Virus record (IMG/VR): IMGVR_UViG_2541047596_000003
Strand: one strand, 5' to 3'
Length of the DNA stretch: 64,000 bases
Origin: a virus
Taxonomy: Duplodnaviria > Heunggongvirae > Uroviricota > Caudoviricetes
The position numbers were made by a program, and so were the translations under genes. Below, one piece after another: positions 12,382-51,136 of the stretch. Under the pieces are notes generated by a model. That model did no database searches and was not told where the DNA came from. It saw only the letters and a list, made by a program, of their open reading frames with translations. Numbering within the stretch: the stretch's first letter is position 1; each line of letters starts with the position of its first letter.

Positions 12382-12578
12382 CGCAATAACTCCGTTTTGT
12401 TAATTAACTAAACAATTCTACCATTTTGTGATCTGTGTTACACTTTGGGCTTATACATAATGTATTTTTTGATCTATATCAACATACGAAATGATAGCTT
12501 CTGCGGTGATTTGCTCATCGGATGGGTGGATCATCACGAACAACAAATGACAGTAAAACAAACAGTAAGGTGAATACA

Positions 12579-12824
12579 ATGAAAAAACTAATTGTTGCTT
12601 GCATCTTATCAGCTCTGTCTTTTGGTGCTTTTGCTTCTGTAAATTCGACAGATAAGAGTGATGCTGGCACTGCTCAATATGGTGATACTGGCCTTGATAA
12701 CCAACGTTCGAGTTATTTCAATACTGACTCATGGAAAGAAAAACAACTACAAGGTAAAATTATTGACAGTGAATGTAATTTACCTATCCATTTTTCTGGT
12801 GTAAATGATGGGTGTAAAAAATAA
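12579..12824 (+). CDS. Small secreted protein, moron (about 82 aa, signal peptide)
   Basis: Opposite strand to tail genes; MKKLIVACILSALSFGAFA signal-like N-terminus; RBS AAGGTGA; followed by terminator. Confidence 0.5.
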   Translation: MKKLIVACILSALSFGAFASVNSTDKSDAGTAQYGDTGLDNQRSSYFNTDSWKEKQLQGKIIDSECNLPIHFSGVNDGCKK

Positions 12825-12834
12825 AAACAATGCA

Positions 12835-12866
12835 TAAAAAAAACGGGGCTTATGCCCCGTTTTTTA
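12835..12866. terminator. Bidirectional rho-independent terminator
   Basis: A-run, CGGGGCTTATGCCCCG hairpin, T-run; sits between convergent J and the moron gene. Confidence 0.65.
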
Positions 12867-15800
12867 TGCTGTCGTTGATGTTCTAAATGATCCGGTGCCT
12901 CTTGCTACTATCATTGTTGGAGAATACAACGCGGTACAATATGCGTATCCTTCAGATGATGATGTTTGAGGACAATATATTTTCCCGATAATATCTGATG
13001 CTTTTAAACCAGAAAAAGCGCATTGCACTGTTAATGTGCATCCACCATAAGGCACGTAATATGAAATTGTTTTGTTTTTATCTCCGCAACTAAACGTTAC
13101 GTTATAAGTGGATCTATATTCACCAGACATTAATGAAATAGTCGCCATAAGCATAACTGATTTCGTCAATGCATTATCCGTGCTGTCTTTATATGTGATG
13201 GTTGCGCTATAACTTCCGTTATGCCCAAGCACTCGATCTGGACCAACCCCCATGTTAGCAACGTCACCGACAAATGATTTTGCCTCTACTGTACCTTTAA
13301 ACTTCCCGCTTGTGGCCTGAATCTCACCAGTGAATTTACCAGATGTTGCGTACACCGTACCGCGTACAGTGACGTTGTTGAACTCCGCATTGCCGTTTTT
13401 ATTTAGCATCCAGCCAGCCGAACCAGCTTTATAGTTGGTTGACTGAATTTGCTGCGCAATCTTCGCGGTAGTGATTGATGCGTCTCTGATCCACGCATCA
13501 CGGATGTAGCAAGCACCGTTAGTAACATAGAACGGGGTCTGATAGGAGCCACCTGCCGCAGTCATAAGCACGAAACGGTCAACGAGGAAAATACACTGCG
13601 ATTGAACGTTAGTCCCGCTACCAGTAAGGCCGAGCGACATTCCTGTAGCGTATTTCATACCGTTTTTATCAGTGGCAATCTTAATTGAATATGACGCATC
13701 AACGTTACCTTTGAAGTCAGTCAGTGCTTTTGATGTCGTTTCTATCGCCGTTGTGTTTCCGTTAATAGTTACTTTCAACTGGTCGATTCTGGTTGACAAT
13801 GCCTCGTCTGCCGTTGCCATAGCCTGTGACCATTCCGTGATGCTTGAGTTTACATCGTCGAAAGATGCCGAGATCTGGCCAAATTTTTCCGCGCTTGATG
13901 TTTCATGCGTAGAAAGTGCAGTTGACACTTCGGATACTTTCGAATTAATCGTACTGGTAAGCGATGAGTTAAGGCTGCTGATTGCGTCAGTGCGTGCATT
14001 CTTCTCATCTGCGATCGCTTTATCCATCCTGGTTACGTTGCTTGTCACCTTGCTATCGAGCGTGGAAATTGACGCATTAACCCCGCTAATAGCTTCTGCG
14101 CGTGCGCTCGCCTCATCTGCGATTGCTTTATCAAGACGGGAAACGCTCGCGTCGGTTTTGCTTTCAAGACTACTGACGCTGGCGTTAACGTTGCTAATAG
14201 CTTCTGCGCGTGCGCTCGCCTCATCTGCGATTGCTGTGTCTACCCTTGCTATTTCCGCTTTTGTTTTTGTTTGTCCTTTCCTGTATTTCGCCTCAATAAC
14301 AGTGCTCATCTTGCTTTGCGCCATTGAGTTATTAATAAGCGCCAGAGATGCGTTTTGCAGACTTGCTTTCGCCTGATCTATCTCGTCGCTGTTTTTATCA
14401 ACCTCACTTTTAACGCCGCCAAGCGTCGCGCTGATACCTGATATCGCCTGAGCACGTGCGCTTGATTCATCAGCGATAGCTTGATCAAGACGGCTAACAC
14501 TGGCATTTGTGTTATTTTCAAGCGTTGTTAAATCAGCTTTAACCACTGTTATTGCGTCGCTTCTTGCCTGCGTTTCATCTGATATTGCATTATCGAGGCG
14601 CTTAACGCTGGCGTCAGTTTTCTTGTCAAGTGTTGAGATACTTGCGTTCACGTCGCTGATAGCCTGAGTACGCGCACTTGTTTCGTCTGCAATTGCCTGA
14701 TCAAGACGGTTTACGCTGGCGTCAGTTTTCTTGTCAAGATTGCTTATTGAGGCATTTACACCGTTAATAGCTTCAGCGCGGGCGCTGGCCTCGTCAGCTA
14801 CTGCGCGTTGCACATTAGAGATCTGACCTTTAAGGTTTGTGTCCATCACATTCATTTCTGCCGTGATGGTTTCCAGTGATTCCGCTGTCGCTTTTTTCTC
14901 TTCAGCGATAACGTTGTCAATGCGGTCAATTTCCGCTTTCGTCTCTGTCCTGCCTTTCTTGTACTGAGCGGTAAGAGTTACGCGAGTGTTAGTCTGTGCA
15001 AGCGAGTTATTAATAAGAGCAAGTGAGGCGTTTTGCAGACTTGCTTTTGCTTGCGCCAGTTCGCTGCCAACTTTTTCGCTAGACACCTCCAGCGAGTCGA
15101 TTCTCGACTCATGCTGTCCAATATCATCGGCGTTTTCCTTAACTTTTTTATAAAGATCTTCCGTTTCTTTTTTGAGCGTATCAGTATCAGCTTTTATTGA
15201 TCCTGTTTCTATGGTTAGGTTGTCAGTTTCAGTCCTTAAATCGTCAGTTATGTTGGTCAGATTATCAGTTGCAGTTTTGAGGTTGTCAGTAGCAGTTTTA
15301 AGGTCATTCGTAGCGCTTTCGATAAGATCAGTGCGGTCGCCTAGATCTTTAATGTCACCAACCATTTCTTTAAATTGTTTGGAATTCATTACGTCTTTGG
15401 TGACGTAATCGGTAATTTCATCAAAGTTTTCTGTTGGCTTACCTGACGCTTCCACAAAGTCAGACACACCAAAAGCGTTACGCGCGCGCACATAAACGTA
15501 ATATGTGTGACCTGTATTCATGCCGCCAAACGTCCACTGATGACCACGCCCGGTATATTGTGCTTTAGTGGTTATTGATGCCGGATCAGTGATCTGCGTT
15601 TCACCTGAGTAATAAAACTCGTAACTGGTATCAGTGGTGAGCGTTGTTCTGCTGATCGGGTAAACTGTAGCCTGGAATACACCGGGAACCCAATTAACGC
15701 CAACTGGGGCCGCTGGTGCGCCAATAACCAGATCGACAATGCTTTCCGCACCCTTCATGCCCGTGTCATTTCTGCCACGAATGCCTAATGAGTAGTTGCC

Positions 15801-17834
15801 AGCATCAATGCCATAAAAATCATAACTGTAATTCGTGGTTTCGTAGCTTTTAACTACAGCGCCTTCGGCGTTATACACGCGAATCTCAAAGGTCAGGCGA
15901 CGCGTTGTCGTCTGTGTTTCCCATGTTGCGCGACATTGAACCGTTTCAGATCCAACGTTTAACACCTTCAGATTTTCAATGTTCGGCACGCGGAAGTGAT
16001 TAAGCGTGTCGTTATTGATCTCGAAGATTGCGCCATTATCGACTACGGCCTGCTTATGTGGATCATGCTGTGCGGCCTCGATGGTGTATACGCTGTTATT
16101 TTCTGTTTCTGCTACACTGGTGATTCGACATAAAACGGGTTTTGCTGCGTTGGTTGATACAGCAAAAACAGTGCCGTTACGAATCCACGCCGGGGCGGCT
16201 GCAAGGGTGATAATGTTCCCGTTAACTCCGATGATCTGGTGTTTTTTAAATTTACCATCGCTATCAAGTAAGCTGATGGTGTCGCCAGCCGCGATATATT
16301 CAGAATCAACCTTGTCGACCGTGATCGCTCTGCCATTGTTCGCCACGATGCGACCGCCTAAACGAGCGCCTGCGCGATTATTATCGAGGATCTCGATTAT
16401 ATCCCCCGGCGTAAAGTGAATGGCGTCACGGGCCATTTTAAATGTGAATTTTGACGGCTCGCGTTTCGCTGTTTCGATCAGCCATTTACCAGCGCGGTGC
16501 GCTTGCCCGCGTGAAGTGCAACCGAACGCCTCCAACGTGGTTTCGTTATAACCATCACGGGCGATTAGTTTATCATCTGCGACATATTCTTTTGATTGCT
16601 CCCAGCCGTTTTCAGGGTCAGTCCAGGATACGATCACGGCGTTGTAGCATTCTGCGCGTGCGATACTTGAACGAGTAAACGCGCCATCAACGACGTTTGC
16701 ATTTGTGATGGTGGCGATTGGATCTTGTGGCGCATCAATCATCACGGTAAGACGTTGTCCGTCCCATAACGCGATACCACGGAACATACCTGCGATGTTA
16801 TCCAGTAGGTCGCGGGCGCTCATTTGCTCCGTAATGTAAGCGTTAAGCGTCATGCGAGGTTCAAGGCCACCATAGCCATCATCAACCAACTGATCGCAGT
16901 ATTGAGAAAGCACGTACAAAGCGCCATCATCAACATCAATGTAACCAGCATGTCGAGCAAGTCCAAAGCGCTCGTTTTTAACCAGATACCGGAAAAGCCA
17001 TGCAGGGTTATTGGTATACGCCTTTTTAAATCCACCAAGCCATAAACCTGAATATGTGCGCGTTTCAGGGTTGTAATTGTCAGGCACATCAACAATCAGG
17101 CCGCGAAGGTGATAGGTGCGGGTAGGCGTATCAGTATACTGATCATGGTCAATTACGGCGCCAGCTACAGCGGTATGAGGATAAGACAGATTATCATCTA
17201 TTATTTCGCTGTAACTACTCCACCGCGTATCATTCCGCAATAGATCGCCGTTGCTGTCTGGTGTTATGCGACGAACGCGAATATCAAACGGTTTTTCATC
17301 CGGCGCTTTAATGATGTGAGCTTCCAGGTATTCACCGCTTTGTTTACCAGGGCCAATGTGTATGTCTTTAATCAGCGACCACGTAGAAGATGATGACGGT
17401 TTAACATCAACCATCAACATGACGGATGTATTATATTGATTGCCCTTTTCATCTGACTGAACGAGAGCATCAACACCAAGATTCAACCTGACGCGGGTAA
17501 CGTTTGGATCTGAAACAGTCCTGATTATTGGTGTGTCGTGAGTTACCTTTGCGTTGACAATAACGGTTGACTCAATGGCGTTAAAACCATTAATCGGCGA
17601 TTGGTCAGCCGTGCCGTTGCGCCAGGCTATACTAATCCCCGGAATTGATGTATTCCCGTTTGCGTCAGTAACAGGAGTGTCATTAAGCATCACGTCATTC
17701 AATGGCGCTTTCTGGTTTACCGGACCGTATATCGGCCCTTCGCTGAGAATATCTAAAACACGATAAAACTGTTTGTGATACAGGTTATCGTTCAATAATG
17801 TTGGTGTTTTGGCTTTGCCGCCGCCGCTACTCAT
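12864..17834 (-). CDS. Host specificity / central tail fibre protein J-like (1656 aa)
   Basis: N-terminal and central regions align with recalled lambda J (e.g. YHLRG..VP.NYNP.TR.YSG.W); long internal coiled-coil repeat insertion. Confidence 0.88.
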   Translation of the reverse strand: MSSGGGKAKTPTLLNDNLYHKQFYRVLDILSEGPIYGPVNQKAPLNDVMLNDTPVTDANGNTSIPGISIAWRNGTADQSPINGFNAIESTVIVNAKVTHDTPIIRTVSDPNVTRVRLNLGVDALVQSDEKGNQYNTSVMLMVDVKPSSSSTWSLIKDIHIGPGKQSGEYLEAHIIKAPDEKPFDIRVRRITPDSNGDLLRNDTRWSSYSEIIDDNLSYPHTAVAGAVIDHDQYTDTPTRTYHLRGLIVDVPDNYNPETRTYSGLWLGGFKKAYTNNPAWLFRYLVKNERFGLARHAGYIDVDDGALYVLSQYCDQLVDDGYGGLEPRMTLNAYITEQMSARDLLDNIAGMFRGIALWDGQRLTVMIDAPQDPIATITNANVVDGAFTRSSIARAECYNAVIVSWTDPENGWEQSKEYVADDKLIARDGYNETTLEAFGCTSRGQAHRAGKWLIETAKREPSKFTFKMARDAIHFTPGDIIEILDNNRAGARLGGRIVANNGRAITVDKVDSEYIAAGDTISLLDSDGKFKKHQIIGVNGNIITLAAAPAWIRNGTVFAVSTNAAKPVLCRITSVAETENNSVYTIEAAQHDPHKQAVVDNGAIFEINNDTLNHFRVPNIENLKVLNVGSETVQCRATWETQTTTRRLTFEIRVYNAEGAVVKSYETTNYSYDFYGIDAGNYSLGIRGRNDTGMKGAESIVDLVIGAPAAPVGVNWVPGVFQATVYPISRTTLTTDTSYEFYYSGETQITDPASITTKAQYTGRGHQWTFGGMNTGHTYYVYVRARNAFGVSDFVEASGKPTENFDEITDYVTKDVMNSKQFKEMVGDIKDLGDRTDLIESATNDLKTATDNLKTATDNLTNITDDLRTETDNLTIETGSIKADTDTLKKETEDLYKKVKENADDIGQHESRIDSLEVSSEKVGSELAQAKASLQNASLALINNSLAQTNTRVTLTAQYKKGRTETKAEIDRIDNVIAEEKKATAESLETITAEMNVMDTNLKGQISNVQRAVADEASARAEAINGVNASISNLDKKTDASVNRLDQAIADETSARTQAISDVNASISTLDKKTDASVKRLDNAISDETQARSDAITVVKADLTTLENNTNASVSRLDQAIADESSARAQAISGISATLGGVKSEVDKNSDEIDQAKASLQNASLALINNSMAQSKMSTVIEAKYRKGQTKTKAEIARVDTAIADEASARAEAISNVNASVSSLESKTDASVSRLDKAIADEASARAEAISGVNASISTLDSKVTSNVTRMDKAIADEKNARTDAISSLNSSLTSTINSKVSEVSTALSTHETSSAEKFGQISASFDDVNSSITEWSQAMATADEALSTRIDQLKVTINGNTTAIETTSKALTDFKGNVDASYSIKIATDKNGMKYATGMSLGLTGSGTNVQSQCIFLVDRFVLMTAAGGSYQTPFYVTNGACYIRDAWIRDASITTAKIAQQIQSTNYKAGSAGWMLNKNGNAEFNNVTVRGTVYATSGKFTGEIQATSGKFKGTVEAKSFVGDVANMGVGPDRVLGHNGSYSATITYKDSTDNALTKSVMLMATISLMSGEYRSTYNVTFSCGDKNKTISYYVPYGGCTLTVQCAFSGLKASDIIGKIYCPQTSSSEGYAYCTALYSPTMIVARGTGSFRTSTTA
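14030..14790. repeat. Tandem in-frame DNA repeats inside J (coiled-coil repeat units)
   Basis: Near-identical about 40-nt cores (AATAGCTTCTGCGCGTGCGCTCGCCTCATCTGCGATTGCT at about 14088 and 14196) with about 108-nt period; protein repeats D.AIADE.SAR..AISGVNASIS.LD. Confidence 0.6.
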
Positions 17835-17847
17835 GGTTTTTCTCCTG

Positions 17848-18378
17848 TTAACTTACAACGTCTAAGGCGTCTCTATTGTTGCTTGTGTCTATGCCTAACG
17901 ATCCGACGTTTGAACCTATTTTCATTTCACCTAATAGTATTGGCACTGGTCTACCCTGGCCCACCTTGTTTTCAATGCTGGTGTAGGTGTTGTTCGTTAT
18001 GGTGTTATCTTGTGCGCTTTCTGCCGATGTTTTTATCTTCATGTTGCGGGACATAAAGATTGAGAACGCAACGCTAACCACCGAAACACCAATCAGGATC
18101 CAGCCTACAACACCAATCCCAGCAATACCGCCTTCAACTACTGGCGCAATAATGACGGTAGTTCCGTCAGGGTATTTACTATTAACCGCTGCCGGGGCCG
18201 TCTTTTCGTTATAATCTTTCCCGGCAATCCGTAACCGCAAAGGTGTATTTAAAAAAGCCTTCTTGAACTCCTGATTCTGCGCGGTCAATAGGCTAAGTCC
18301 TTGTGCTGGCGTATCAACGTTTAAACACACTTTGCCGTAATATCTTCGAAGATTGCCCGTAAATCTAAATTTGAGCAT
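17848..18378 (-). CDS. Tail assembly protein I-like
   Basis: Similarity to recalled lambda gpI (LRIAG..., ...PVLYGEM.VGS motif) and position between K and J. Confidence 0.65.
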   Translation of the reverse strand: MLKFRFTGNLRRYYGKVCLNVDTPAQGLSLLTAQNQEFKKAFLNTPLRLRIAGKDYNEKTAPAAVNSKYPDGTTVIIAPVVEGGIAGIGVVGWILIGVSVVSVAFSIFMSRNMKIKTSAESAQDNTITNNTYTSIENKVGQGRPVPILLGEMKIGSNVGSLGIDTSNNRDALDVVS

Positions 18379-19052
18379 TTGTCAGATCTCCATATTGAAT
18401 GCGTTTGTCGAACATACGCGGGCCGCATTTGCTCGCGGCGGCTTAGCAGTCCGGCATTGTCATGATGCAAAACAGTGTTATCGCCCAGGTAAATCATCGC
18501 GTGACATGGGTCAGCACCCTTGAACGGCTGGCGAATAATCACGTCACCAGGCTGAATGCTTTGCGCATCAACCATGAAAAACCCGTTCAATGGCAGGTTT
18601 TTTATGTACAGGTTTTCCCCACGCAGCCACCACCCATCGTGGCGTTCAAAGTCAGGCAGATCCACGCCGCAAAGGTGATAGGCGTCACGAAAAAGCGAGT
18701 AGCAATCTGTTTTCCCGTGTTCAAATTTACGGCCTAACAGGTGCGCCACCGGGCGGAATTTCCTCACCATGCCACCGGAACATAAAAACCACGGCAGGCC
18801 GGAAATAACCTGCTGTTGTCGATCCCGTGCCGACAATACCGGAATATCTTCAACGTGAGAGTGGAAAACGGCTGTTATAACGCCCAATTCGTCAGCTTTG
18901 ATATAATCGTCAGGCGAGATTTTAAAGCTGTTGTGCGGCGTTTCAGACACGTTAGCGCACGGGTAAAAATAATCGTTATCTATCACCAGCCCGCACACTT
19001 CCTCGCGCGGGTGGGCTGCTGCATAGCGAATCATTTTATCTTCAAGTGCCAT
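18321..19052 (-). CDS. Tail assembly protein K-like (JAB/MPN plus NlpC/P60)
   Basis: HGxxDCYSLFRDAYHL..DF..D.WW motif as in lambda K; start ATG 19052 overlaps L stop. Confidence 0.7.
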   Translation of the reverse strand: MALEDKMIRYAAAHPREEVCGLVIDNDYFYPCANVSETPHNSFKISPDDYIKADELGVITAVFHSHVEDIPVLSARDRQQQVISGLPWFLCSGGMVRKFRPVAHLLGRKFEHGKTDCYSLFRDAYHLCGVDLPDFERHDGWWLRGENLYIKNLPLNGFFMVDAQSIQPGDVIIRQPFKGADPCHAMIYLGDNTVLHHDNAGLLSRREQMRPAYVRQTHSIWRSDKCSNLDLRAIFEDITAKCV

Positions 19053-19054
19053 AA

Positions 19055-19759: not shown

Positions 19760-19888
19760 TTTCTCACCTTGTCATTCTGTGATCTGCGTCACGCTAAATC
19801 ATACCAAAATGGATTGATCGCGGTTTTTACAATATGTATATTTTACTCAAACGGAAGCATAGTTAACAAAATGGCGCGGAGGTGCGTT

Positions 19889-20077
19889 ATGACTGAAAAG
19901 CTATGGAAGTTGACGGTATTCATGACAGACGGTAGGGAAAAGGTTATCGCCCTGTATGACGACGAGGGTGAAGCATTGGTTGACGCGCTTTTACTTGCTG
20001 AGGATGACCGCCTTTTGGGATACCAGATCGAACCTGTCAAATATGAGGCTAACAAAAATGAAAAAATACAGTCTTGA
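19889..20077 (+). CDS. Hypothetical small protein, moron gene 1 (62 aa)
   Basis: ATG 19889 preceded by GGAGGTG; opposite strand to tail operon; paralogous to the next gene. Confidence 0.45.
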   Translation: MTEKLWKLTVFMTDGREKVIALYDDEGEALVDALLLAEDDRLLGYQIEPVKYEANKNEKIQS

Positions 20078-20405
20078 TGTGTGGTTAAGTGGTAGCAAGG
20101 AGTGTTTCGGATTATTTGATAGCGAAGAAGTAGCCCTGGAAGAAGGCAGGATTCTTGAATGTAGTTTAGGCCATCCAGTGAAATATGCTGCTAATCCGGT
20201 ACAGATAGTTGATGAGGTGGAAGATATGAACCCGAAAGATATTAATGGTAGCTTCACTGCTTATTATGCAGATTCTATGGACCAGTCTTGCCCTGGTGAA
20301 ATACACGCAAAAGGTTTCCCGGCTGACGATCCAGAAGCAAAACGCGAATACGAAAAAGCGGCGAAAGATTTCTGTATCGATAACCTTTCAGCATTCGATA
20401 AATAA
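20058..20405 (+). CDS. Hypothetical protein, moron gene 2 (115 aa), paralog of gene 1
   Basis: ATG 20058 with GAGG RBS; shares the ...L.V..(T/S)...E....L.D.E..AL... and PVKY.AN motifs with the upstream gene. Confidence 0.45.
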   Translation: MKKYSLDVWLSGSKECFGLFDSEEVALEEGRILECSLGHPVKYAANPVQIVDEVEDMNPKDINGSFTAYYADSMDQSCPGEIHAKGFPADDPEAKREYEKAAKDFCIDNLSAFDK

Positions 20406-20414
20406 GGCGGCAAC

Positions 20415-20663
20415 ATGGGGCGGCGCAATCACGGTGATTATGTGTACACGTTGAAACAGGCCGCCCGCCTCATCGGTTATCATGAACACGAATTTATTGA
20501 TTTGCTGATTGAGCGCGGGATACTGTACCAGGTCTGTTTAACGCTGTACCCGAAAGCGAAATACCTACATGAAAAGTTATTCATCATCATGACGGATGAA
20601 AACCAGGTTAACCATTCATTCGTCACTGATAAGGGCGTTAATTATCTGCGTGATAACTTATAG
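20415..20663 (+). CDS. Hypothetical protein with HTH-like segment, moron gene 3 (82 aa)
   Basis: ORF immediately after gene 2; YTLKQAARLIGYHEHEFIDLLIERGIL resembles an excisionase/MerR-type HTH. Confidence 0.4.
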   Translation: MGRRNHGDYVYTLKQAARLIGYHEHEFIDLLIERGILYQVCLTLYPKAKYLHEKLFIIMTDENQVNHSFVTDKGVNYLRDNL

Positions 20664-21370: not shown

Positions 21371-21537
21371 AAAACCCCCACAAGTTACATTTTGTATATA
21401 TCTTTACGCGCTTCTACGCGAAAAATAAGATCATTGTCACAATGATTATAGCTAGTTTACAAAATGGCTTCACATAGCACGCAACAAGATGTATATAGAA
21501 AGCAAGAAGAAAGTAGTACCAACGAAGGAGGCCCAAA

Positions 21538-21693
21538 ATGAAACGCTATGTAGTAGTAATGCTAAATAACGCATTCGAACAAGTGGAAATAGCAATCGTT
21601 AAGGGTTTCGACGACGCATTCAAATACGGTCAATTCATGATGAATGCGAAAGAAGATGAATACCGGGACTTCTTCCTGAAGGCACTTAACTAA
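21538..21693 (+). CDS. Hypothetical small protein, moron (51 aa)
   Basis: ATG at 21538 with AAGGAGG 6 nt upstream; not in the ORF track (under 60 aa). Confidence 0.5.
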   Translation: MKRYVVVMLNNAFEQVEIAIVKGFDDAFKYGQFMMNAKEDEYRDFFLKALN

Positions 21694-21710
21694 GGATGAT
21701 GGGGTGAGTT

Positions 21711-21965
21711 ATGAAACTGGTAGCGATTGACAGAAATCTGAAAGCACAGAAAAACGCACAGGACCGGATCATCAAGAAAGGTAAGGAATTACTTAAAGCC
21801 TTTCTGAGAAAAGAAGTTTACCCCAAAAAGTTACGCGACGGTTACGGATACAAAATGGATATCAATCTTGATTGGAGGCTGTTTAGCGAAGATTTGAAGG
21901 TTTGGTTAATTGTTGAGCACCATGCCTATAACAAGTTATGTGGCGTGAAAGGCACTCATAAGTGA
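21711..21965 (+). CDS. Hypothetical protein, moron (84 aa)
   Basis: ORF 17 nt after the previous gene with GGGGTGAG RBS; followed by terminator. Confidence 0.5.
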   Translation: MKLVAIDRNLKAQKNAQDRIIKKGKELLKAFLRKEVYPKKLRDGYGYKMDINLDWRLFSEDLKVWLIVEHHAYNKLCGVKGTHK

Positions 21966-24394: not shown

Positions 24395-24521
24395 GATTTA
24401 ACCTCATGCAAAAATGTGATCTGTGTATCTATTTTATACAAAATGGCTTTACTTCAACGACTCCATTTTGTATAAAGAAGCCAAAGGGAATGGTCAGTAA
24501 ATCAAGTTAGCGTGGTGGGTT

Positions 24522-25181
24522 ATGAAACGGTTAGCAAAAGTGGCAATGATTGCGGCGGTATTGGGTCTGGTTGGTTGCAATGAGGATAATGAAAAAGCGC
24601 CTATAGTGACCACTCAAGAACAACAAGCATTAGCAGAGAAAAATGCTAAATGGCTTGCAGAACAACAAGCAAAACAAGCCGCATATGAGGCACAGTTAGC
24701 AAAAGAAAAAGCTGGTAAACAGTGGCTTGTGGTCGAAAGAAAAGATGATATGCAGGACACAAAAAACGTGTTCCTTTTCGTGAAAGCAGAACATTTCAGC
24801 GGAAGTCTTGATGCTTTCCCTACACTGAAAGCACGGGATGAAAACAAACCTGTATTAACAATCGCTTGCCAGGGTAATAAAACAAAAATGTTCGTAGCAT
24901 GGTCAAACCATGTAACTGACGCTGGGGACACTACTTATATTAACTACCGGATCGGCGATCACAAAGCTGTAGCTACTGAATGGAGTCGGTCAACTAACTA
25001 TAAAGCTCTTGGATTATGGAACGGCAAAAAAGCCATTCCAATGATTAAAAAACTGGTTAACGAAAAACAATTTATCATTGAAGTAGTGCCGGAAGCTGGC
25101 GACATTGAGAAAGCAGTGTTTAACATTGATGGTCTTTATAACCACATCGACAAAGTGAAAAACGCTTGCAACTGGAATTAA
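24522..25181 (+). CDS. Lipoprotein, moron (219 aa)
   Basis: Lipobox LVGC after signal peptide MKRLAKVAMIAAVLG; opposite strand between tape measure and tail chaperone genes. Confidence 0.6.
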   Translation: MKRLAKVAMIAAVLGLVGCNEDNEKAPIVTTQEQQALAEKNAKWLAEQQAKQAAYEAQLAKEKAGKQWLVVERKDDMQDTKNVFLFVKAEHFSGSLDAFPTLKARDENKPVLTIACQGNKTKMFVAWSNHVTDAGDTTYINYRIGDHKAVATEWSRSTNYKALGLWNGKKAIPMIKKLVNEKQFIIEVVPEAGDIEKAVFNIDGLYNHIDKVKNACNWN

Positions 25182-25190
25182 GGGTGAAAC

Positions 25191-25511
25191 ATGAAACGCG
25201 ATGAATGGATGAGAAAATGGGAACATAAACAAGTAGCATATAATCGCAAGATGAACCGCGAATTTGACTTCGGTGTCGCAGAGCGTGATTGTGGGTATAA
25301 AGGAAATCTAAATGGTGCATATGTTCAACATGTTGGCGATAAACAGTATTATTACATTGTCAACTTCAACCATGTATTGCACGCAGATCTGGTTGTTATT
25401 GATGGGAAAACAAAAATAGTAGCGAATAAACGCATTAATAAGAACGCAGCAATCAATATATTAACAGTGATTCGCACCCAGATGAATGTGCTTTACGAAA
25501 AAATAGCATAA
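25191..25511 (+). CDS. Hypothetical protein, moron partner (106 aa)
   Basis: ORF 10 nt downstream of lipoprotein gene; followed by terminator. Confidence 0.45.
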   Translation: MKRDEWMRKWEHKQVAYNRKMNREFDFGVAERDCGYKGNLNGAYVQHVGDKQYYYIVNFNHVLHADLVVIDGKTKIVANKRINKNAAINILTVIRTQMNVLYEKIA

Positions 25512-44142: not shown

Positions 44143-44343
44143 TCACCACATCATATAGTAAACGTTATCATCTGCTAATTCGTCTGCGTCTCTTTGGCAG
44201 TCGATTGTCGCATCATCTTCGTGCCATTCTTTAGCAAATAAACGCGCCCATTTACGACGCTCACGTTTATTGTGCCGCAGGTCACTAAAAACCATTAAAG
44301 CCTTGTCGTAAGCTCTTACCAGGCGTTTCATTCTACTTTTCAT
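44143..44343 (-). CDS. Hypothetical basic small protein, paralog family B
   Basis: MKSRMKRLVRAYDKALMVF... tandem paralog. Confidence 0.45.
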   Translation of the reverse strand: MKSRMKRLVRAYDKALMVFSDLRHNKRERRKWARLFAKEWHEDDATIDCQRDADELADDNVYYMMW

Positions 44344-44549
44344 TTTTCACCCTTCCTTAATTCCTTAATTTCAATATTGCGTAACCGGACGTCGCACGGC
44401 GTTTCAGATTTACCAGTAAGCGCCAGCGTCAGGTTTTCAGGTGTCGTGTAAAGAATTATCTCTTTACCAGTGCTAAATTTAATTTCTATGCGGATCTCGT
44501 TTTCATCACCGCACAATACGCGGCTAATTGACAGGCCAGCTTTTTTCAT
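44340..44549 (-). CDS. Hypothetical protein
   Basis: ORF-track ORF, operon strand, coupled. Confidence 0.4.
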   Translation of the reverse strand: MKKAGLSISRVLCGDENEIRIEIKFSTGKEIILYTTPENLTLALTGKSETPCDVRLRNIEIKELRKGEK

Positions 44550-44562
44550 TGCTCAACAAACC

Positions 44563-44862
44563 TTAAAATCTGTATTGCCAGTAAATATCACACTTTATTG
44601 CAAATACCTTCACCGGATCAGGGCCGAATAGTGGATGTTGAATCAACTTGATTTCGTACCCCATGTAAGGCAATACGATAATCCGGTCTTTCTCATCATC
44701 CGATGGATAACCCCATTTAATGATTAATCTTGTGTACTCCCGCCCCTCCAGGCGTTTACGCCAGTATTCATTGTAAAGCCGGTATTCTTCCACCTTCTTT
44801 CCCGCCCGGATGGCGTGGAAGTATTCACCTTTTAAATTCAAATGTAAGTGTTTATTTGCCAT
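44563..44862 (-). CDS. Putative ASCH/DUF3850-like protein (99 aa)
   Basis: N-terminus H..L...YF.AI..GKK..E.R resembles ASCH-type fold signatures; assignment from memory only. Confidence 0.4.
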   Translation of the reverse strand: MANKHLHLNLKGEYFHAIRAGKKVEEYRLYNEYWRKRLEGREYTRLIIKWGYPSDDEKDRIIVLPYMGYEIKLIQHPLFGPDPVKVFAIKCDIYWQYRF

Positions 44863-45121
44863 CGCTATGATCCTGTAAACAGTCGTTATAGCCTTCGATG
44901 TATCCGGTTAATCCTGTGTTACTTACTGACCAATCAGCCGAACGGCGCTTGATGGCCTTGTCCATAGTCATCTCGTCACCTGGCCCGCCTGGCTCGATGT
45001 ATTTTCTTAAATCCCTTACTATCCACGCCCTTAATTGTTGCGTATCACTGCACACACGCGCCGTTAATGTCAGATTATTAACCAGCTTTGCGAATAGATG
45101 TTCTTTTAATTTAGGCTTCAT
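44852..45121 (-). CDS. Hypothetical protein
   Basis: ORF-track ORF, operon strand. Confidence 0.4.
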   Translation of the reverse strand: MKPKLKEHLFAKLVNNLTLTARVCSDTQQLRAWIVRDLRKYIEPGGPGDEMTMDKAIKRRSADWSVSNTGLTGYIEGYNDCLQDHSDGK

Positions 45122-45311
45122 CCTTCACCTCGCGACGATAGATTTCTACTGGCTTAACCGGAATAGCGTTAAAATCCCCTTCATCCAGTGCGGCAATAAA
45201 CGTTAGCGCCAACCGTGCTTCAACACCGCTTAAATACTTGCACCATGCCTCACCGTTATAATCTTCAAAAAGAATAATCACTTTTTTCATGTTTATCTCT
45301 TGTTGTTTCAT
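45111..45311 (-). CDS. Hypothetical protein
   Basis: Start overlaps stop of the Cys-rich Q-like gene. Confidence 0.4.
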   Translation of the reverse strand: MKQQEINMKKVIILFEDYNGEAWCKYLSGVEARLALTFIAALDEGDFNAIPVKPVEIYRREVKDEA

Positions 45312-46039
45312 TATTCACCCCGTGTCACTCGTTTAATTTCGTTATCAGCCCGCGCCTCTTCTTTGAACAATTCAGTAATGGCGTCTTCATAGAAAGCACG
45401 GTATTTCTTCCACCACGTTGATCGGCTTACCGGAAATACAAGCTGATTAACCGCACGCCGGACAAGATCTACAGGGAAACGCGAGTACCCGCGCCCGCCG
45501 CAGTGCTGGCACGTTTTGAATACTGGCATTTCCGCCGCTTCGCTGGCTGCTTTATCCGGTACTTCGCCACGCCCCTTGCACCTCTGGCAATGGTTTTTAA
45601 CGTAGCCTTTGCCGTTGCACCGCGAGCAAACTGTCGATGTGTATTCACAATATGGATTCGGTAAAAGCCCGTTACCTCCGCACTTAGGGCAAACCTTTTC
45701 GGTAGCCGCACTTTGGCAGTAATCCCGAAACGCGAAAACGGCAACAAGAATAATAAGATCATTGCGTTGTTCTTCATTTAATTCCATCACGTATTCGTAA
45801 TCTTTCGCCATAGCCCTTAAACGCTCTGTAAGCAAAATTACGGCCCTGTGTTTTTCAGCTTGCGATAGCTCCATTTTCCCTAAAAAAGCACTATAGCCAA
45901 GCTCTACGCGCGATTGCGCCATACCAGCGGCGGTAAGCGCATCCGTCGTATTAAGTGCATCCGGGGATGTTCCCCGGCTTTCGTCTGATAATCGCGGTGA
46001 TTTGGGAAAGTGGAATTTCAGAATGGATTCTAAATTCAT
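45311..46039 (-). CDS. Cys-rich protein with four CxxCxGxG zinc-finger motifs; possible Q-type antiterminator (242 aa)
   Basis: CPKCGGNG, CSRCNGKG, CQRCKGRG, CQHCGGRG; position just downstream of rusA as in lambdoid nin-Q regions. Confidence 0.45.
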   Translation of the reverse strand: MNLESILKFHFPKSPRLSDESRGTSPDALNTTDALTAAGMAQSRVELGYSAFLGKMELSQAEKHRAVILLTERLRAMAKDYEYVMELNEEQRNDLIILVAVFAFRDYCQSAATEKVCPKCGGNGLLPNPYCEYTSTVCSRCNGKGYVKNHCQRCKGRGEVPDKAASEAAEMPVFKTCQHCGGRGYSRFPVDLVRRAVNQLVFPVSRSTWWKKYRAFYEDAITELFKEEARADNEIKRVTRGE

Positions 46040-46221
46040 TATTTGCCCCCATAGCGAGCAATAAGGCGTTTGCGATCAGAAATGGTTTGCACCAGTTTTC
46101 TTTCAAGCTCTTTCAGCGCAAGTAATTCCTGCATGTGAAAAGCCTGGATTCGTCTGACTGTCGCTAAATCATGCTCGTCACGTTGAACATCTATTTGCAG
46201 ATCTTTAATTTCGTTTTTCAT
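46039..46221 (-). CDS. Hypothetical small coiled-coil protein (60 aa)
   Basis: ORF coupled between rusA and the Cys-rich gene. Confidence 0.4.
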   Translation of the reverse strand: MKNEIKDLQIDVQRDEHDLATVRRIQAFHMQELLALKELERKLVQTISDRKRLIARYGGK

Positions 46222-46625
46222 TGCTCACCCCACATATTAGTCGCATATTCGTTAATATCCGGTAGCAGGTCGCCGCGTTCGCATACCTTAATAAACAATC
46301 GCCCGCCTTTTACCTTCCGGCAGCGGACAATTTTTATTGAGTCGATTTGCCCATCATCATTCCAGAATCCGGCACAAGTAAGGCTGTCAAAAAGGCATTT
46401 TGGGATATTATCAAGATCTCTGACCCGGTTATCCGGCGGCGCGGCATAAATGGCGATTGCCAGTCGGCAAGATAGGTTAATGTCTAAATTTAATAATTCG
46501 ATGATGTCTTTTACTTGTTCCCGGTATTCCTTCCCCACTTCGCTGATATAGTGAAAACCTCGTGAATGTCGGTAATATCGGTTATTAGATGGCGGGTAAG
46601 GTAGGCTAAATGTATACTCGTTCAT
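46218..46625 (-). CDS. rusA: Holliday junction resolvase RusA-like (135 aa)
   Basis: PYPPSNNRYYRH motif and D..D.....K..FD.L....FW.DD pattern as in RusA. Confidence 0.8.
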   Translation of the reverse strand: MNEYTFSLPYPPSNNRYYRHSRGFHYISEVGKEYREQVKDIIELLNLDINLSCRLAIAIYAAPPDNRVRDLDNIPKCLFDSLTCAGFWNDDGQIDSIKIVRCRKVKGGRLFIKVCERGDLLPDINEYATNMWGEQ

Positions 46626-47227
46626 GCTGCCTTTCTCCTTAAGGCGTCCAATTTTGCCTGATAGATGTTTATTAGCTCCTTACATTCTGCGATCGTCCAT
46701 TTATGCGTATCATTGTTGTTCTCCAGAGCTACCACCCTGGCGAGGCCAATTTTTCGAATCAGCGCCGGGCGATACCCTCCGATGTTGCCGTCTAGTGTCT
46801 GGTTGCAGTGCCTACATTGCTTATGGCAATTATCCTCGTTGAAGCGAAGGTGTCCGGCGGCGGCTACCGTCCTGTAATGACCTGCATCCCACCCGCATTG
46901 CTCACCGTAGTAAGTCCCGCAAGATATACACGGCAAGCGCGCGTCACGTTCGCGAATATAGGCGTTAAATACATTTTGAACTTGTTTGATCCAATAACTA
47001 CGCGGATTTAACTGTTTACGCTTCCGGTTGCGTTCTTCCCTCTGGCTATCACGGCGTTTCTTCCGCTCCATAGCCTTCATAGCCTTCTCACGGTCGCGGC
47101 ATAGCTGGTCAAACTTCAGTTCTTCCAGACATTCATCGCTGCACCACGTTTGATTGTGATATTTAGGCTCAAAAAAAACGCCGCAGCATTTGCAACGGCG
47201 TCTTATGGGTTTTTTAGGGTTTTGCAT
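46622..47227 (-). CDS. ninG: NinG-like protein
   Basis: Strong similarity to recalled lambda NinG (RRRCK..C...F, PRSYWIKQ, LPCISCGT, WDAGHYRT.AAA..LRFNE.N.HKQC); start at internal ATG 47227 with GGGGTGG RBS. Confidence 0.8.
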   Translation of the reverse strand: MQNPKKPIRRRCKCCGVFFEPKYHNQTWCSDECLEELKFDQLCRDREKAMKAMERKKRRDSQREERNRKRKQLNPRSYWIKQVQNVFNAYIRERDARLPCISCGTYYGEQCGWDAGHYRTVAAAGHLRFNEDNCHKQCRHCNQTLDGNIGGYRPALIRKIGLARVVALENNNDTHKWTIAECKELINIYQAKLDALRRKAA

Positions 47228-47241
47228 AAAAACCACCCCGA

Positions 47242-47418
47242 TTATTTTTGATTCTCTGTTTCGTTCAGCCTTTCGGCGTGTCCGGCCCTTAGCCAATGTT
47301 CTAAGCATTCGTTGCACTCGTTACAGCCTCCTTTCTTCGTGCTGCATACATTGCACATTGCACGCATAACGCTTTCTCGTTCATAGTCGTCATGCCATTG
47401 GTAATCATCAAAAGACAT
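47242..47418 (-). CDS. NinF-like small CxxC protein (58 aa)
   Basis: ATG 47418 with AAGGAGAG RBS; Cys-rich; position immediately upstream of ninG. Confidence 0.45.
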   Translation of the reverse strand: MSFDDYQWHDDYERESVMRAMCNVCSTKKGGCNECNECLEHWLRAGHAERLNETENQK

Positions 47419-47577
47419 AATGCTCTCTCCTTTTCAGGTGATTTCTACGCATTTCAGCGCTGCCGGATTTTTAAAGAGCATTTTGTTTGCTTGAAGTATA
47501 CAAAATGGATACACCAGAACAAGGCGAAAAGCGCCATTATGTGATCCACATCACGCAATGACGCCATTTTGTAAATT

Positions 47578-48336
47578 TCAGTCCGATAAAACGCGGTCAT
47601 GGTTAGCCAGGAATACAGCACGGGCAAAGCCACGCGGTGTTAGTGAGCGGATCATCTTTGTTCGTTTCGTCCTGCCTCCGGTTTTCGCCCACCCAGGGTT
47701 ATCACCAGAGTTAAGATCTACAGGTCTAAAAAGCGGCTGCCTGAATCCGTTGCCGCACCATATGCAAGTTTTCTTCGTGTACGCGTCGCGCGGTGGGTAA
47801 ACATCAGGGAAAGCAGGATGCTTGTCATCTTCCGGCAGGTAGCCACCGTAAGCGCAAGGATTGAAGATAAAATCCGGTTTACGCCATAGCGTTGACAGCA
47901 CACCAACAGGATTCTCCACCATCCACGGCACGTTATACATGTTAGCCAGAGATTCAACCAACATTGCGTTTCTTGCCGCCCTATTCTGAAAACAAGGATC
48001 TTTCCTGTATTTATCAACGAACCAGCGAGCGCCTGACACAGCGAGATCGTCGCATGGAGGAAAGCCCAGGATAATGTCAGGCTCTGGATAAACAGACAAT
48101 TCAGGGGAGAACATTACCAGGAAATGGCTATCAATCCAGACGTTAACGTATTCAATATTTGGATGAATGATTTTAACGCCTTCATAATCTCCGTGATTTG
48201 CGCCGTCATAGTTGAAGCAATAGCACTTATATCCAGCTTCCGCCCAATCTTTAACGGCGTACCCGCTGCCGTCGTACAGCGACCACACCACCCAACTTCT
48301 AAGCCAATTATTTAACCAATGTTTAGCCCTGCTCAT
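47578..48336 (-). CDS. Putative DNA cytosine-5 methyltransferase-like protein (252 aa)
   Basis: GFPPCDD (PC-motif-like) and MVENPVG (ENV motif); shorter than canonical Dcm. Confidence 0.5.
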   Translation of the reverse strand: MSRAKHWLNNWLRSWVVWSLYDGSGYAVKDWAEAGYKCYCFNYDGANHGDYEGVKIIHPNIEYVNVWIDSHFLVMFSPELSVYPEPDIILGFPPCDDLAVSGARWFVDKYRKDPCFQNRAARNAMLVESLANMYNVPWMVENPVGVLSTLWRKPDFIFNPCAYGGYLPEDDKHPAFPDVYPPRDAYTKKTCIWCGNGFRQPLFRPVDLNSGDNPGWAKTGGRTKRTKMIRSLTPRGFARAVFLANHDRVLSD

Positions 48337-48878
48337 TTTCTACCCTCAAACGTGAAATAGCGGCGCATAATGATGGTGATCACCGTTACCGCTGCCATTT
48401 TTGAGATGAATTGCATAGCTGATATTTCCGGCATAAACGCCATAAACGATAGCGTAGGAAAAATTAACGCATCACCAATGGCGGACGCTATATTTGCAGG
48501 CCAACGTTTAGAATCAAAGCCACCAGGCAAAACCCGGTAAACGCCGCCAGAAATAAGTGCACCGGAAACAACCGCAACGAATGACGCGATCGCCACCATT
48601 CCGGCGTCGTAATTTATCAGCACCGTGATTGCGCCAGCGGCGGCGCATGTTGTAGCCGACCATTTCAGGCCGCCGTCATATAACAGGAGGTCACGGATCA
48701 TCATATTGACACACACGGCGGCTACCGTGGTGATCGGAATTACCCACGGGCCGCAATGATTAACAATAAGATTGATGATCACAAAAACGGCGACATAAAC
48801 GCAGGCTAATAACCTGTCAATTGTCACCCTTTCCATTTTTATGATACCCCGCCGCGCGTAATAGCGATTCGTTGTCAA
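48333..48878 (-). CDS. Polytopic membrane protein (181 aa)
   Basis: Several hydrophobic helices; coupled to methyltransferase gene. Confidence 0.45.
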   Translation of the reverse strand: MTTNRYYARRGIIKMERVTIDRLLACVYVAVFVIINLIVNHCGPWVIPITTVAAVCVNMMIRDLLLYDGGLKWSATTCAAAGAITVLINYDAGMVAIASFVAVVSGALISGGVYRVLPGGFDSKRWPANIASAIGDALIFPTLSFMAFMPEISAMQFISKMAAVTVITIIMRRYFTFEGRK

Positions 48879-48920
48879 ACTTCACATCAAGCCGATTAGT
48901 AATCTCACCACCGTTAAACA

Positions 48921-49328
48921 TCACAGGTGGGATTGCCCCGGTACAATAGATGGTTCTGGTCCGGCAAGGTCAGCAAAAGTTTTCTTCAATCCACCGATAG
49001 GGAGATCAAAAACGCCCTGTTTTTTCTTTTGCTCTTCCTCCCGCTCCGTTAATATTTGCTCAGCTTTTAGCGCGTTATAGCTAATTAAATCAATTAGTGT
49101 GTCTGTCGGATCGCTGTTATTGCTCAAAATAGCCTCTAAACGCGCCTCCTTGAGACAAATTAGCAGATCCCATACATCAAGCGTGGTTAAATCTGCCCCC
49201 TTCTTAGCGTTGTAAATAGTGGCTATTTTTGGCGCTGATTTTTCCTCTTTTTTGTCGTAGCCGTTTTGCTTACCTCTTTGCTCTATGGTTTCTGCTGCAA
49301 GTCTTAATAAATCTGCTGCCTTAGTCAT
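48921..49328 (-). CDS. Hypothetical protein (135 aa)
   Basis: ORF overlapping the Dam-like gene stop. Confidence 0.4.
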   Translation of the reverse strand: MTKAADLLRLAAETIEQRGKQNGYDKKEEKSAPKIATIYNAKKGADLTTLDVWDLLICLKEARLEAILSNNSDPTDTLIDLISYNALKAEQILTEREEEQKKKQGVFDLPIGGLKKTFADLAGPEPSIVPGQSHL

Positions 49329-49869
49329 TATTTGCGCCTCTCGCGTATAGCTCTTTACGTGTTATCTGCGTGAAAATACATTCATGTCTGCATCGTGGAT
49401 GCCAGATCAAGAACAAGCTCCCCTTATTGTTCCCGCTTACTGGTTTCCCTGTTGCAGCATTGATAAACGCCAGCCGCCCGCGCGTGATTAATCGGCATTC
49501 GTTTGCCGTCTCCACGCCGTTCATAAACCAGCTAACAGAAATGTCAGCGGGCAATAGCATTACACAGCCAATGTGATTTCGTTGATGTTCAAGCGCCGCC
49601 TTATCAACGAATGGTCCCGGATTAGAATATGGCGGATTCATCCAGACATACTCACCAGGCATCGCCACCGCTCCCCACGGATAATGGAGCGTGTCCATTT
49701 CTTCGGTTATATATCGCGGGATTAATGCGTTTTCCTTGTTTGCCGCCACATCCGCGACGAACTCGAATTCCCGATCCATTCCTCTAAAAACGGGTTTTGG
49801 CGTTTGCCATAAGTCTTTTATTTCTTTCGGCGTATGGCTGCCGCCGTAATCATTTTTCATTACGTCCAC
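49321..49869 (-). CDS. Phage DNA N6-adenine methyltransferase (Dam-like, 182 aa)
   Basis: NPPY catalytic motif (WMNPPYS) and overall resemblance to phage Dam family. Confidence 0.72.
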   Translation of the reverse strand: MDVMKNDYGGSHTPKEIKDLWQTPKPVFRGMDREFEFVADVAANKENALIPRYITEEMDTLHYPWGAVAMPGEYVWMNPPYSNPGPFVDKAALEHQRNHIGCVMLLPADISVSWFMNGVETANECRLITRGRLAFINAATGKPVSGNNKGSLFLIWHPRCRHECIFTQITRKELYARGANND

Positions 49870-50103
49870 CTAGAAATAATCCTGTTCCGTTCCCCAGCGG
49901 TTATTCAGATACCCCACCAACCACACAAAACGCTCAATACTGATTAGCGGGGCGACCTTGCGATAATGCTTATCTAATATCAGCCGCGTGGCTTTATCGC
50001 TGTATCCGTTCTTTTCTACCTCCGCCTTGCAGGCCGAAAGCGCGGCGCGGGCGGCAGTCTTTACGGCGTTAAATTGCGGCTCTGACAGGTTAAATAAAGC
50101 CAT
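49870..50103 (-). CDS. Hypothetical protein
   Basis: ORF-track ORF trimmed to internal ATG adjacent to upstream stop. Confidence 0.35.
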   Translation of the reverse strand: MALFNLSEPQFNAVKTAARAALSACKAEVEKNGYSDKATRLILDKHYRKVAPLISIERFVWLVGYLNNRWGTEQDYF

Positions 50104-50104
50104 T

Positions 50105-50347
50105 TTATAAATCATCAGTAGAATCAGCGAAAAAGAACCCAACAAATACACTAACAGCAATAATAACCCTTAATATATAAAGCGCATCATCAGGTGATGG
50201 AATTTCTGGTAGCTCCCATGTAACAAACGACACACCACATAAAATTCCAATAAAAACCGTAGCTATACATGAGAATACGAAAAAAGAACAAAATAACCAT
50301 CCAATAATGAAGTCAATAATTGCACGCATCATTTTAAACGTCCTCAA
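50105..50347 (-). CDS. Small membrane protein (80 aa)
   Basis: Two to three hydrophobic helices. Confidence 0.4.
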   Translation of the reverse strand: MRTFKMMRAIIDFIIGWLFCSFFVFSCIATVFIGILCGVSFVTWELPEIPSPDDALYILRVIIAVSVFVGFFFADSTDDL

Positions 50348-50537
50348 TTACCCCGCCTTTCACGCGCTCTTTAATATCCCATACGTGAGGCTTGCATATT
50401 TCTTGATAGTAGCGATCCGGCCTGCTGCCGAAATACCATTTGCCATCCATATAAAAATAAACGCCAGAAACATTTCCTGGCGCTGCCTTTGTTGCTGCTT
50501 CTGGAATTTTCCATTCCATGTAATGTTTAAATTTCAT
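50334..50537 (-). CDS. Hypothetical protein
   Basis: ORF-track ORF, operon strand. Confidence 0.4.
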   Translation of the reverse strand: MKFKHYMEWKIPEAATKAAPGNVSGVYFYMDGKWYFGSRPDRYYQEICKPHVWDIKERVKGGVIEDV

Positions 50538-50721
50538 GAGTTTTTAAATAACCTCTTCTGAATGCTTTGATGTAAATTCCTAATCTCCTTATATGTTGAA
50601 CGCCATCAATAAGACGTATTAAATAAATCGCTCCTTTTGCGTCAGATACAAATCCACACCCGAAACCAATGCCAACTAATTTTAGGCCATCAGGTATTCT
50701 ATAATCAGTTTTCTGTTCCAT
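50527..50721 (-). CDS. Hypothetical protein
   Basis: ORF-track ORF, operon strand. Confidence 0.35.
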   Translation of the reverse strand: MEQKTDYRIPDGLKLVGIGFGCGFVSDAKGAIYLIRLIDGVQHIRRLGIYIKAFRRGYLKTHEI

Positions 50722-50819
50722 GCCTCACCTCATATGGTATTCAATAAACCACCTGATAAACAGACATAAGGCAATAAAACCCCAGCAACAGCACATATAA
50801 AACAATGTGTCGTCCATAA

Positions 50820-51038
50820 TTAAGCCTCAATAACACCGTAATCGAACGTGCCTAAATACCGTTCGATACTTACAACCTCAATACCATCAATGCACCGTTT
50901 CCACACAGACACCTGGCTTTCATTTTCTCTGAAGTGCATATTAGAAAGCACTTCATCGGCTGGGTAGCCTTTCCCGGCGACGTAGGCATCGTGACCTACG
51001 CCACCTTCTACGCAATAAAGCATCAATTCGCGTTCCAT
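50820..51038 (-). CDS. Hypothetical protein (72 aa)
   Basis: Internal ATG 51038 with GGAGG RBS; upstream region holds motif and CRP-like site. Confidence 0.4.
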   Translation of the reverse strand: MERELMLYCVEGGVGHDAYVAGKGYPADEVLSNMHFRENESQVSVWKRCIDGIEVVSIERYLGTFDYGVIEA

Positions 51039-51136
51039 CTTGTTTCCTCCGTGCCGTAAACCTCTTAATTTCAGTTTACAAAACGGATATGCGATCGCAA
51101 TACAAAATGTATATTTATGTGATCGCAATCACGCTG

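Follow-up and report, generated by a model that had tools for sequence, protein, structure and literature searches.

The 64,000-nucleotide stretch of Caudoviricetes DNA analyzed here (IMG/VR record IMGVR_UViG_2541047596_000003, hereafter the window) contains a temperate Escherichia coli prophage of the mEp021/mEpimmI type, which runs from about position 10,000 to the right end of the window and is inserted next to dgcM/ydaM. This prophage carries about eight conserved palindromes (dyads) that resemble the binding site of the host cyclic AMP (cAMP)-CRP complex and lie beside copies of a recurrent motif and promoter-like hexamers (Table 1). It is 99.9% identical to a prophage in E. coli M1/5; against phage mEp021 and its relatives, identity over matched early regions is 86–88%. 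The mEpimmI group comprises Nus-dependent non-lambdoid temperate coliphages, whose prevalence reportedly equals that of lambdoid phages in the source collection of human fecal isolates (PMC11893012). All 94 RefSeq gene calls in the window translate correctly. The minus strand encodes the late genes, a Q-like antiterminator, early genes and a CI/LexA-type repressor (55303–55950), and the plus strand from about 56,250 encodes the replication operon, the first gene of which is MarR-like. Four small plus-strand accessory gene sets (morons) sit between the tail genes. Intergenic (RefSeq-unannotated) DNA makes up 13.8% of the prophage, and its left flank consists of host DNA and a Rac remnant.

Table 1. 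CRP-like dyads, predicted promoters and associated elements in the window. Predicted centers assume a transcription start 7 nt after the −10.
Feature	Position	Strand	Sequence	Matrix score (bits)	Predicted −35, spacer, −10	Predicted dyad center	Context
Dyad A	12427–12442	+	TGTGATCTGTGTTACA	16.8	no recognizable −35; weak −10 TATTTT (12463–12468)	about −40.5	overlaps motif copy CCATTTTG (12421–12430); upstream of plus-strand accessory gene 12579–12824 (81-amino-acid protein with secretion signal)
Dyad B	19778–19793	+	TGTGATCTGCGTCACG	16.5	TTGATC (19814–19819)-17-TATATT (19837–19842)	−63.5	faces accessory operon 19889–20663 (two unknown proteins and a KilAC fragment)
Dyad M21	21426–21441	+	TAAGATCATTGTCACA	weak in this window	TTCACA (21469–21474)-17-TATATA (21492–21497)	−70.5	faces 21538–21965 (51-amino-acid protein and ParE-like toxin)
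Dyad C	24415–24430	+	TGTGATCTGTGTATCT	10.6	TTTACT (24448–24453)-17-TATAAA (24471–24476)	−60.5	CRP-like in left half only; faces 24522–25511 (VasI/TagO-like protein and unknown protein)
Motif inverted pair	24437–24472	+	TACAAAATGG-N16-CCATTTTGTA				brackets −35 of promoter C
Dyad D	41139–41154	−	TGTGATACAGATCACA at 41139; minus strand TGTGATCTGTATCACA	15.4	TTGTTT (41116–41121)-17-TATAAA (41093–41098)	−60.5	perfect dyad; faces 92-amino-acid gene 40779–41057
17-bp motif, promoter E copy	47494–47510	+					
Hairpin (15 bp) and TTTT	47527–47565	−					conserved; tip is dyad E; TERM_4 in GenBank record of mEp021
Dyad E	47540–47555	−	TGTGATCCACATCACG	17.3	TTGTTC (47517–47522)-16-TATACT (47495–47500)	−59.5	22 nt past −10: TGCTCTTTAAAAA, boxA of nutR2 (47468–47480), then ninG, rusA, Q
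Dyad F	51118–51133	−	TGTGATCGCAATCACG at 51118; minus strand CGTGATTGCGATCACA	12.8	TTGCGA (51095–51100)-16-TAAACT (51073–51078)	−59.5	faces 72-amino-acid gene 50820–51038
Site 52725	52725–52740		TGTGATATAAATCACC	12.6			inside unannotated hydrophobic open reading frame of 39 amino acids (52668–52787, minus strand)
PR-like early promoter	55151–55195	−			TTGACT-17-TATATT		top match of promoter scan tool
Dyad H	55976–55991	+	TTTGATGCAAGTCACA	17.1	PL: TTGATC (56010–56015)-16-TAAACT (56032–56037)	−60.5	left half FNR-type, right half CRP-type; between repressor and MarR-like genes, also over predicted start of divergent repressor transcript
17-bp motif, PL copy	56023–56038						

A scan of the window for TGTGA-N6-TCACA with at most one mismatch returned seven matches against 2.03 expected, and none of 100 shuffles reached seven. 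Candidate sites were also scored with a CRP weight matrix, as the sequence-only reading that drew attention to these palindromes had proposed; this matrix, derived from 17 well-known sites, is approximate, and on it the training sites themselves score 10.7–17.6 bits, bar one outlier at 3.3 bits. The top seven scores of the whole window, 12.6–17.3 bits, lie in the range of known sites on this approximate scale, and all seven fall in RefSeq-unannotated prophage DNA. Compared with 300 dinucleotide shuffles of the prophage part, there were five sites at 15 bits or above (0.15 expected) and seven at 12.5 bits or above (1.3 expected). The consensus-mismatch scan does not depend on this matrix. All six palindromes listed in the sequence-only reading were recovered where it placed them, including the site at 41139 that it described as perfect. 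Its ranking of the weaker sites was right for 24415; however, the site at 12427, which it had also called weaker, scores 16.8 bits. The consensus scan further yielded the sites at 52725 and 55976. The former probably has no regulatory role; the stretch around it contains tandem, close-packed small hydrophobic open reading frames that are unannotated, for example two of 39 amino acids at 52545–52664 and 52668–52787 on the minus strand.

The reported co-location of the palindromes with a recurrent motif also held up, with 25 matches to TACAAAATGG against 7.1 expected and a fixed register between the two elements. The motif is longer than 10 bp, and every copy in the dyad cassettes abuts a promoter-like hexamer. 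In one orientation, CCATTTTG runs directly into TAnAnT (TATACT, TAAACT or TATAAA) and so forms the end of the spacer together with the −10; in the opposite orientation, TACAAAATGG is followed after 1 nt by a −35-like hexamer. Cassettes D (41098–41133) and B (19803–19838) repeat the inverted pair of cassette C, its two copies lying 26 bp apart around the −35; in B the second copy is a variant. A 17-bp form, AAGTATACAAAATGGAT, abuts the −35 of the PR-like promoter, and an identical, inverted copy provides the spacer end and −10 (TATACT) of promoter E; with the further copy at PL, this is, boxA aside, the best element common to PR, PL and promoter E. We also considered the inverted repeat of the motif as a conserved RNA stem and found no support for it, as the extended stem of cassette D is lost in several variants, that of the window included.

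The position of the dyads relative to these hexamers is nearly constant. The dyad center lies 25 bp from the first −35 base in cassettes C, D, E and F, in which the 17-bp intervening sequences are of three unrelated types. PL has 26 bp and B 28 bp between these points, and M21, at 35 bp, is a helical turn further away. Among 71 distinct related-phage contexts of the E, F, C, D and PL types with a motif-bearing −10, the center lies 47 or 48 bp from the −10 in 69. In lacP1 of K-12, taking hexamer and start positions from established knowledge, the center-to-−35 distance is likewise 25 bp. CRP sites are classically centered near −61.5 or −71.5 at class-I promoters and at −41.5 at class-II promoters; the predicted centers of −59.5 and −60.5 fall short of −61.5 because the spacers are of 16–17 bp and not 18. 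An A-rich copy of the motif occupies −47 to −38, upstream of the −35, and in class-I complexes the C-terminal domain of the polymerase alpha subunit binds just upstream of the −35. The promoter assignment for dyad A is the weakest of the set.

Three scans of IMG/VR, two anchored on proteins and one on a pattern, supplied about 170 loci for the assessment of conservation. The site classes recur across these relatives; of the eight, mEp021 lacks D and has the other seven at the same positions. Computed over the eight classes (6–19 distinct 22-mers each), the minority-base fraction is 0–0.03 at GTGA versus 0.20–0.26 at the five central positions, and the TCAC cores are also almost invariant within site classes, with a degenerate right half in C and in most D alleles. 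Across about 90 related loci, GTGA and TCAC hardly change and the central bases are free to vary, as expected of selection on contacted bases. The first T of TGTGA varies among relatives, in line with CRP's own information profile. Dyad B shows invariant half-sites and a variable center across 17 distinct 22-mers; at E, 14 different central tetranucleotides occur among 36 variants; and M21 reads TGAGATCTTCATCACA in relatives, where it scores 14–15 bits. The left half of A is kept in 27 variants with TTACA or TTGCA as right half. In D the left half is kept and a full TCAC right half is present in about 9 of 22 variants, the remainder having CCCGCA, CTCGCA or CCTTCA. Dyad H is fully conserved, center included. 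Matches of at least 13 bits numbered 220 in 1.73 Mb of mEpimmI-type loci versus one in 0.58 Mb of unrelated siphovirus loci retrieved with the same tail-protein query, and more than 90% of such matches have the motif within 70 bp. Furthermore, the cassette is retained in relatives while the cargo genes downstream change.

On balance, we consider it probable that the dyads are binding sites of host cAMP-CRP acting as a class-I or class-II activator, in which case phage gene expression would probably be tied to the carbon status of the host. This reading is favored because the core specificity matches, in GTGA-N6-TCAC and in the T that follows TGTGA, and because the dyads lie at lac-like or helically phased activator positions. 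A dimer of cAMP-CRP would bind each dyad within a family of phage sigma-70 promoter cassettes that have a weak-to-moderate −35/−10 pair, the motif providing either the spacer end and −10 (CCATTTTG-TAnAnT) or the 10 bp that immediately precede the −35, at which the polymerase alpha C-terminal domain sits in class-I complexes. From about 60 or 70 bp upstream, CRP would recruit polymerase by the class-I mechanism, and from about 40 bp upstream, at site A, by the class-II mechanism. Under low glucose (high cAMP), stronger transcription would then be expected of the tail-region accessory genes on the opposite strand, of two small internal early genes, of the PL (replication) operon and of the nutR2-ninG-rusA-Q operon. 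Transcription starts, CRP occupancy and activation rather than repression are inferred here from the arrangement of the sequence; starts are predicted close to 12475, 19849, 21504, 24483 and 56044 on the plus strand and to 41086, 47488 and 51066 on the minus strand. The sequence-only reading had suggested control of moron or tail genes by such sites; the moron part agrees with the predicted targets, among them the opposite-strand accessory genes, and the tail-gene part does not.

Several points weigh against this interpretation. The weight matrix is approximate, and the promoters are predictions, with only PR and B passing the thresholds of the scan tool. The predicted centers of −59.5 and −60.5 are not the textbook −61.5, and B, at −63.5, is off phase. 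Dyad C is a half-site only, the right half of D is degenerate in most alleles, and one cassette has been duplicated to give C and D, which means that the sites are not all independent. At E, conserved arms around a variable center are equally explained by an RNA hairpin. Dyad H could be a phage operator, in view of its conservation over the whole length, its FNR-type left half and its place in the immunity region.

The sequence-only reading had allowed for either host CRP or a phage regulator that recognizes a CRP-like dyad. A binder of another kind, either a dimeric regulator encoded by the phage or some host factor besides CRP, with the CRP resemblance being convergent, would account for the restriction of the dyads to this phage group, for their constant company with a phage-specific motif and for dyad H, which overlies the predicted repressor transcript start in the immunity region and is conserved through its center; many small early proteins of unknown function could supply such a regulator. 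We nevertheless regard this as unlikely, as core, spacing, the T after TGTGA and the lac-like register would all have to coincide with those of CRP. Ten proteins of the early region, all of its annotated regulators among them, were scanned, and none showed a CRP/FNR-type domain. Host CRP is also preferred over a phage regulator because the dyads are absent from PR, where the immunity repressor must bind. An immunity operator would be expected at both divergent early promoters, and besides the lack of a dyad at PR, that of PL is centered at −60.5 and not over the promoter; we accordingly rejected the repressor, which is 90–100% identical in all relatives compared, as the dyad binder. The MarR-like protein was rejected as well: it is 30–100% identical, or undetected, in relatives while the dyads persist unchanged, and their persistence where this regulator is only 30–35% identical again argues for host CRP. 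The MarR-like gene itself, the first of the PL operon (56256–56513), is highly polymorphic among near-identical phages, with alleles of about 100, 64, 35 and 30% identity. FNR was rejected too, since the dyads have G at the discriminating position (GTGA) and a scan for FNR boxes with at most one mismatch gave six matches versus 4.2 expected, no overall excess; among the dyads only the left half of H is of the FNR type (TTGAT-N4-ATCAA), as is a separate box at 12469–12482.

Alternatively, the palindromes might act as RNA or DNA hairpins, serving as terminators, processing sites or stability elements, a reading that concerns E above all. Dyad E caps a conserved stem of 15 bp that runs into TTTT (−19.4 kcal/mol in the alignment fold, median −21.9 kcal/mol for single sequences), the element is annotated as TERM_4 in GenBank and listed as predicted terminator t4 of mEp021 (PMC11893012), and conserved arms with a variable center suit a stem with a loop. 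The other dyads, however, form weak folds (−0.3 to −8.9 kcal/mol) with no U tract, compared with −13.6 to −17.5 kcal/mol for real terminators in the window, so that A, B, C, D, F and H do not look like intrinsic terminators and E alone does. No compensatory changes were seen, the T/C variation at dyad position 4 is uncompensated, several dyads lie upstream of their promoters, and a hairpin leaves the fixed distance to the −35 unexplained. As an account of the palindromes in general we find a hairpin role improbable. At E, where the hairpin immediately precedes the promoter-like element and nutR2, which has been placed downstream of a cytosine-methyltransferase gene (PMC11893012), hairpin and CRP site may coexist in a terminator-promoter-nut arrangement. 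Lastly, the dyads could be chance occurrences, or have hitch-hiked with a duplicated ancestral cassette without being under selection themselves. C and D are clearly duplicated copies and ATCACATAA is common to E and F; against this stand the shuffle statistics, the selection on half-sites rather than the center in each orthologous site, and the same length of three unrelated 17-bp spacers. This explanation is strongly disfavored, and we give it very little credence.

With host CRP as the favored binder of the dyads, the strict conservation of the motif, together with its second copy over the spacer and −10, suggests that a further, phage-specific factor binds as well; a candidate is the repressor, because PL and PR share the motif. 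The motif also occurs in the form TACAAAATGTAAAC-(N)-CGGAG...ATG, 15–20 nt upstream of start codons, at 54502–54511, 58866–58875 and 60004–60013, and these copies suggest a shared junction sequence or a role in translation initiation, distinct from that of the promoter copies. Other elements flank the early promoters: CTTGCAGACAAGGTAAGG and CTTGCAAAGACGCAAGG occur just downstream of the PL −10 (55990–56100) and the related TTGCGAGTCAAAGGAAGG just downstream of the PR −10 (55110–55150). Their dyad character is of the form CTTGC...GCAAG, and they might serve as operators for immunity or as conserved parts of the leaders. A broader proposal, which we put forward as speculative and rather doubtful, is that dyad and 17-bp motif form a portable promoter cassette on which host CRP is combined with a factor of the phage, which might be the Rep repressor sitting near −42 and near −17 in the manner of OR2/OR3; the t4 DNA would at the same time serve the Q-operon promoter as its CRP site, and carbon status would gate accessory genes and entry into late transcription across this group of gut coliphages.

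Other observations were made along the way. The accessory cassette of dyad A also contains a perfect FNR box, TTGATCTATATCAA (12469–12482), 41 bp downstream of the dyad; its TTGAT and (A/G)(T/C)CAA halves are kept in relatives while the central 4 nt vary, and one allele places its center at −41.5 relative to a GATATT −10. Another perfect FNR box is found at 33762–33775, between the terminase and portal genes. A further repeat, TTTACGCGnnnCTACGCGAAAAAT, a direct repeat of TACGCG, is present at 21403–21426 and 33654–33677 (two copies versus zero expected); both copies are intergenic beside late genes and one directly abuts dyad M21. The 752-bp "intergenic" region 35785–36536 (minus strand) seemed on reading to contain further small hydrophobic open reading frames. 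Pfam and PHROGs assigned the genes downstream of the cassettes mostly to "unknown," and PADLOC matched none of these genes to a defense system. An Rfam scan matched no known RNA family in the prophage; its matches were the RalA antitoxin small RNA (4155–4333) and the host small RNA FnrS (8643–8760), both in the flanks. The former belongs to a Rac-type remnant in 1–5889 with an intact integrase reading frame (4654–5889) adjoining ttcA, and this left flank is unlike that of strain M1/5. A protein-based scan across genera with the repressor, covering one genome per species, returned no match; the exact PR 20-mer matched only one metagenome bin, which is labeled Bacillales and is probably a mis-binned phage contig.

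The cassettes are most easily compared with lacP1, a class-I promoter at which a 16-bp TGTGA-N6-TCACA dyad is likewise centered 25 bp upstream of a sub-consensus −35. M21, one helical turn further out at −70.5, resembles the malT arrangement (−70.5), and as in class-I promoters an A-rich stretch separates dyad and −35. Unlike lacP1, the prophage cassettes have spacers of 16–17 bp and predicted centers at −59.5 or −60.5; unlike E. coli class-I promoters in general, they are found in a prophage and not in catabolic operons; and unlike host promoters, the DNA from dyad to −10 holds a strictly conserved, phage-specific motif of 10–17 bp. Site A, centered about −40.5 from a weak −10, recalls class-II promoters of the galP1 and melR type (−41.5), from which it differs in having a conserved perfect FNR-type box 41 bp downstream. 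The motif, as opposed to the dyad, can be compared with the dispersed repressor sites of other phages, the C1 operators of P1 and the "stoperators" of cluster A mycobacteriophages: it is likewise an asymmetric 14–17-bp element scattered over the genome, in or beside promoters, in both orientations and common to PL and PR. In contrast to those systems, the repressor here is of the CI/LexA type and expected to bind a dyad, the binder of the motif is only putative, and the motif, which includes a −10-like hexamer, could be no more than promoter core.

CRP-dependent promoters are textbook knowledge. Direct CRP control of phage promoters is known from phage T1, where cAMP-CRP directly regulates several promoters (pir, dam, recE) and links development to sugar uptake (PMC6737242). 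The mEpimmI prophage would resemble T1 in that host CRP is predicted to act directly on several coliphage promoters. It would differ in that CRP represses in T1, whereas the geometry here is of the activator type, and in that this is an unrelated temperate group with CI-like immunity and N/Q antitermination. A term search of that article did not bring up the positions of the CRP sites in T1 (PMC6737242). Searches of the literature on mEp phages yielded no mention of CRP sites, of palindromes or of the recurrent motif, nor any CRP occupancy results for mEpimmI phages, and the description of the mEpimmI genome mentions none of these, one dyad site being labeled a predicted terminator (PMC11893012). 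What appears to be new is the set of CRP-like dyads in mEpimmI phages and the proposed re-reading of "t4."

Should PL, the Q-operon promoter and the tail-region accessory genes indeed be driven by CRP, the lysis–lysogeny balance would follow sugar availability in the gut, and lysogen traits such as the secreted proteins and the ParE-like toxin would do likewise. Beside T1, this would be a second case of CRP-controlled phage development, here of the activator type. The cassettes would also represent compact natural promoter modules of about 75 bp that stay constant while the cargo downstream changes.

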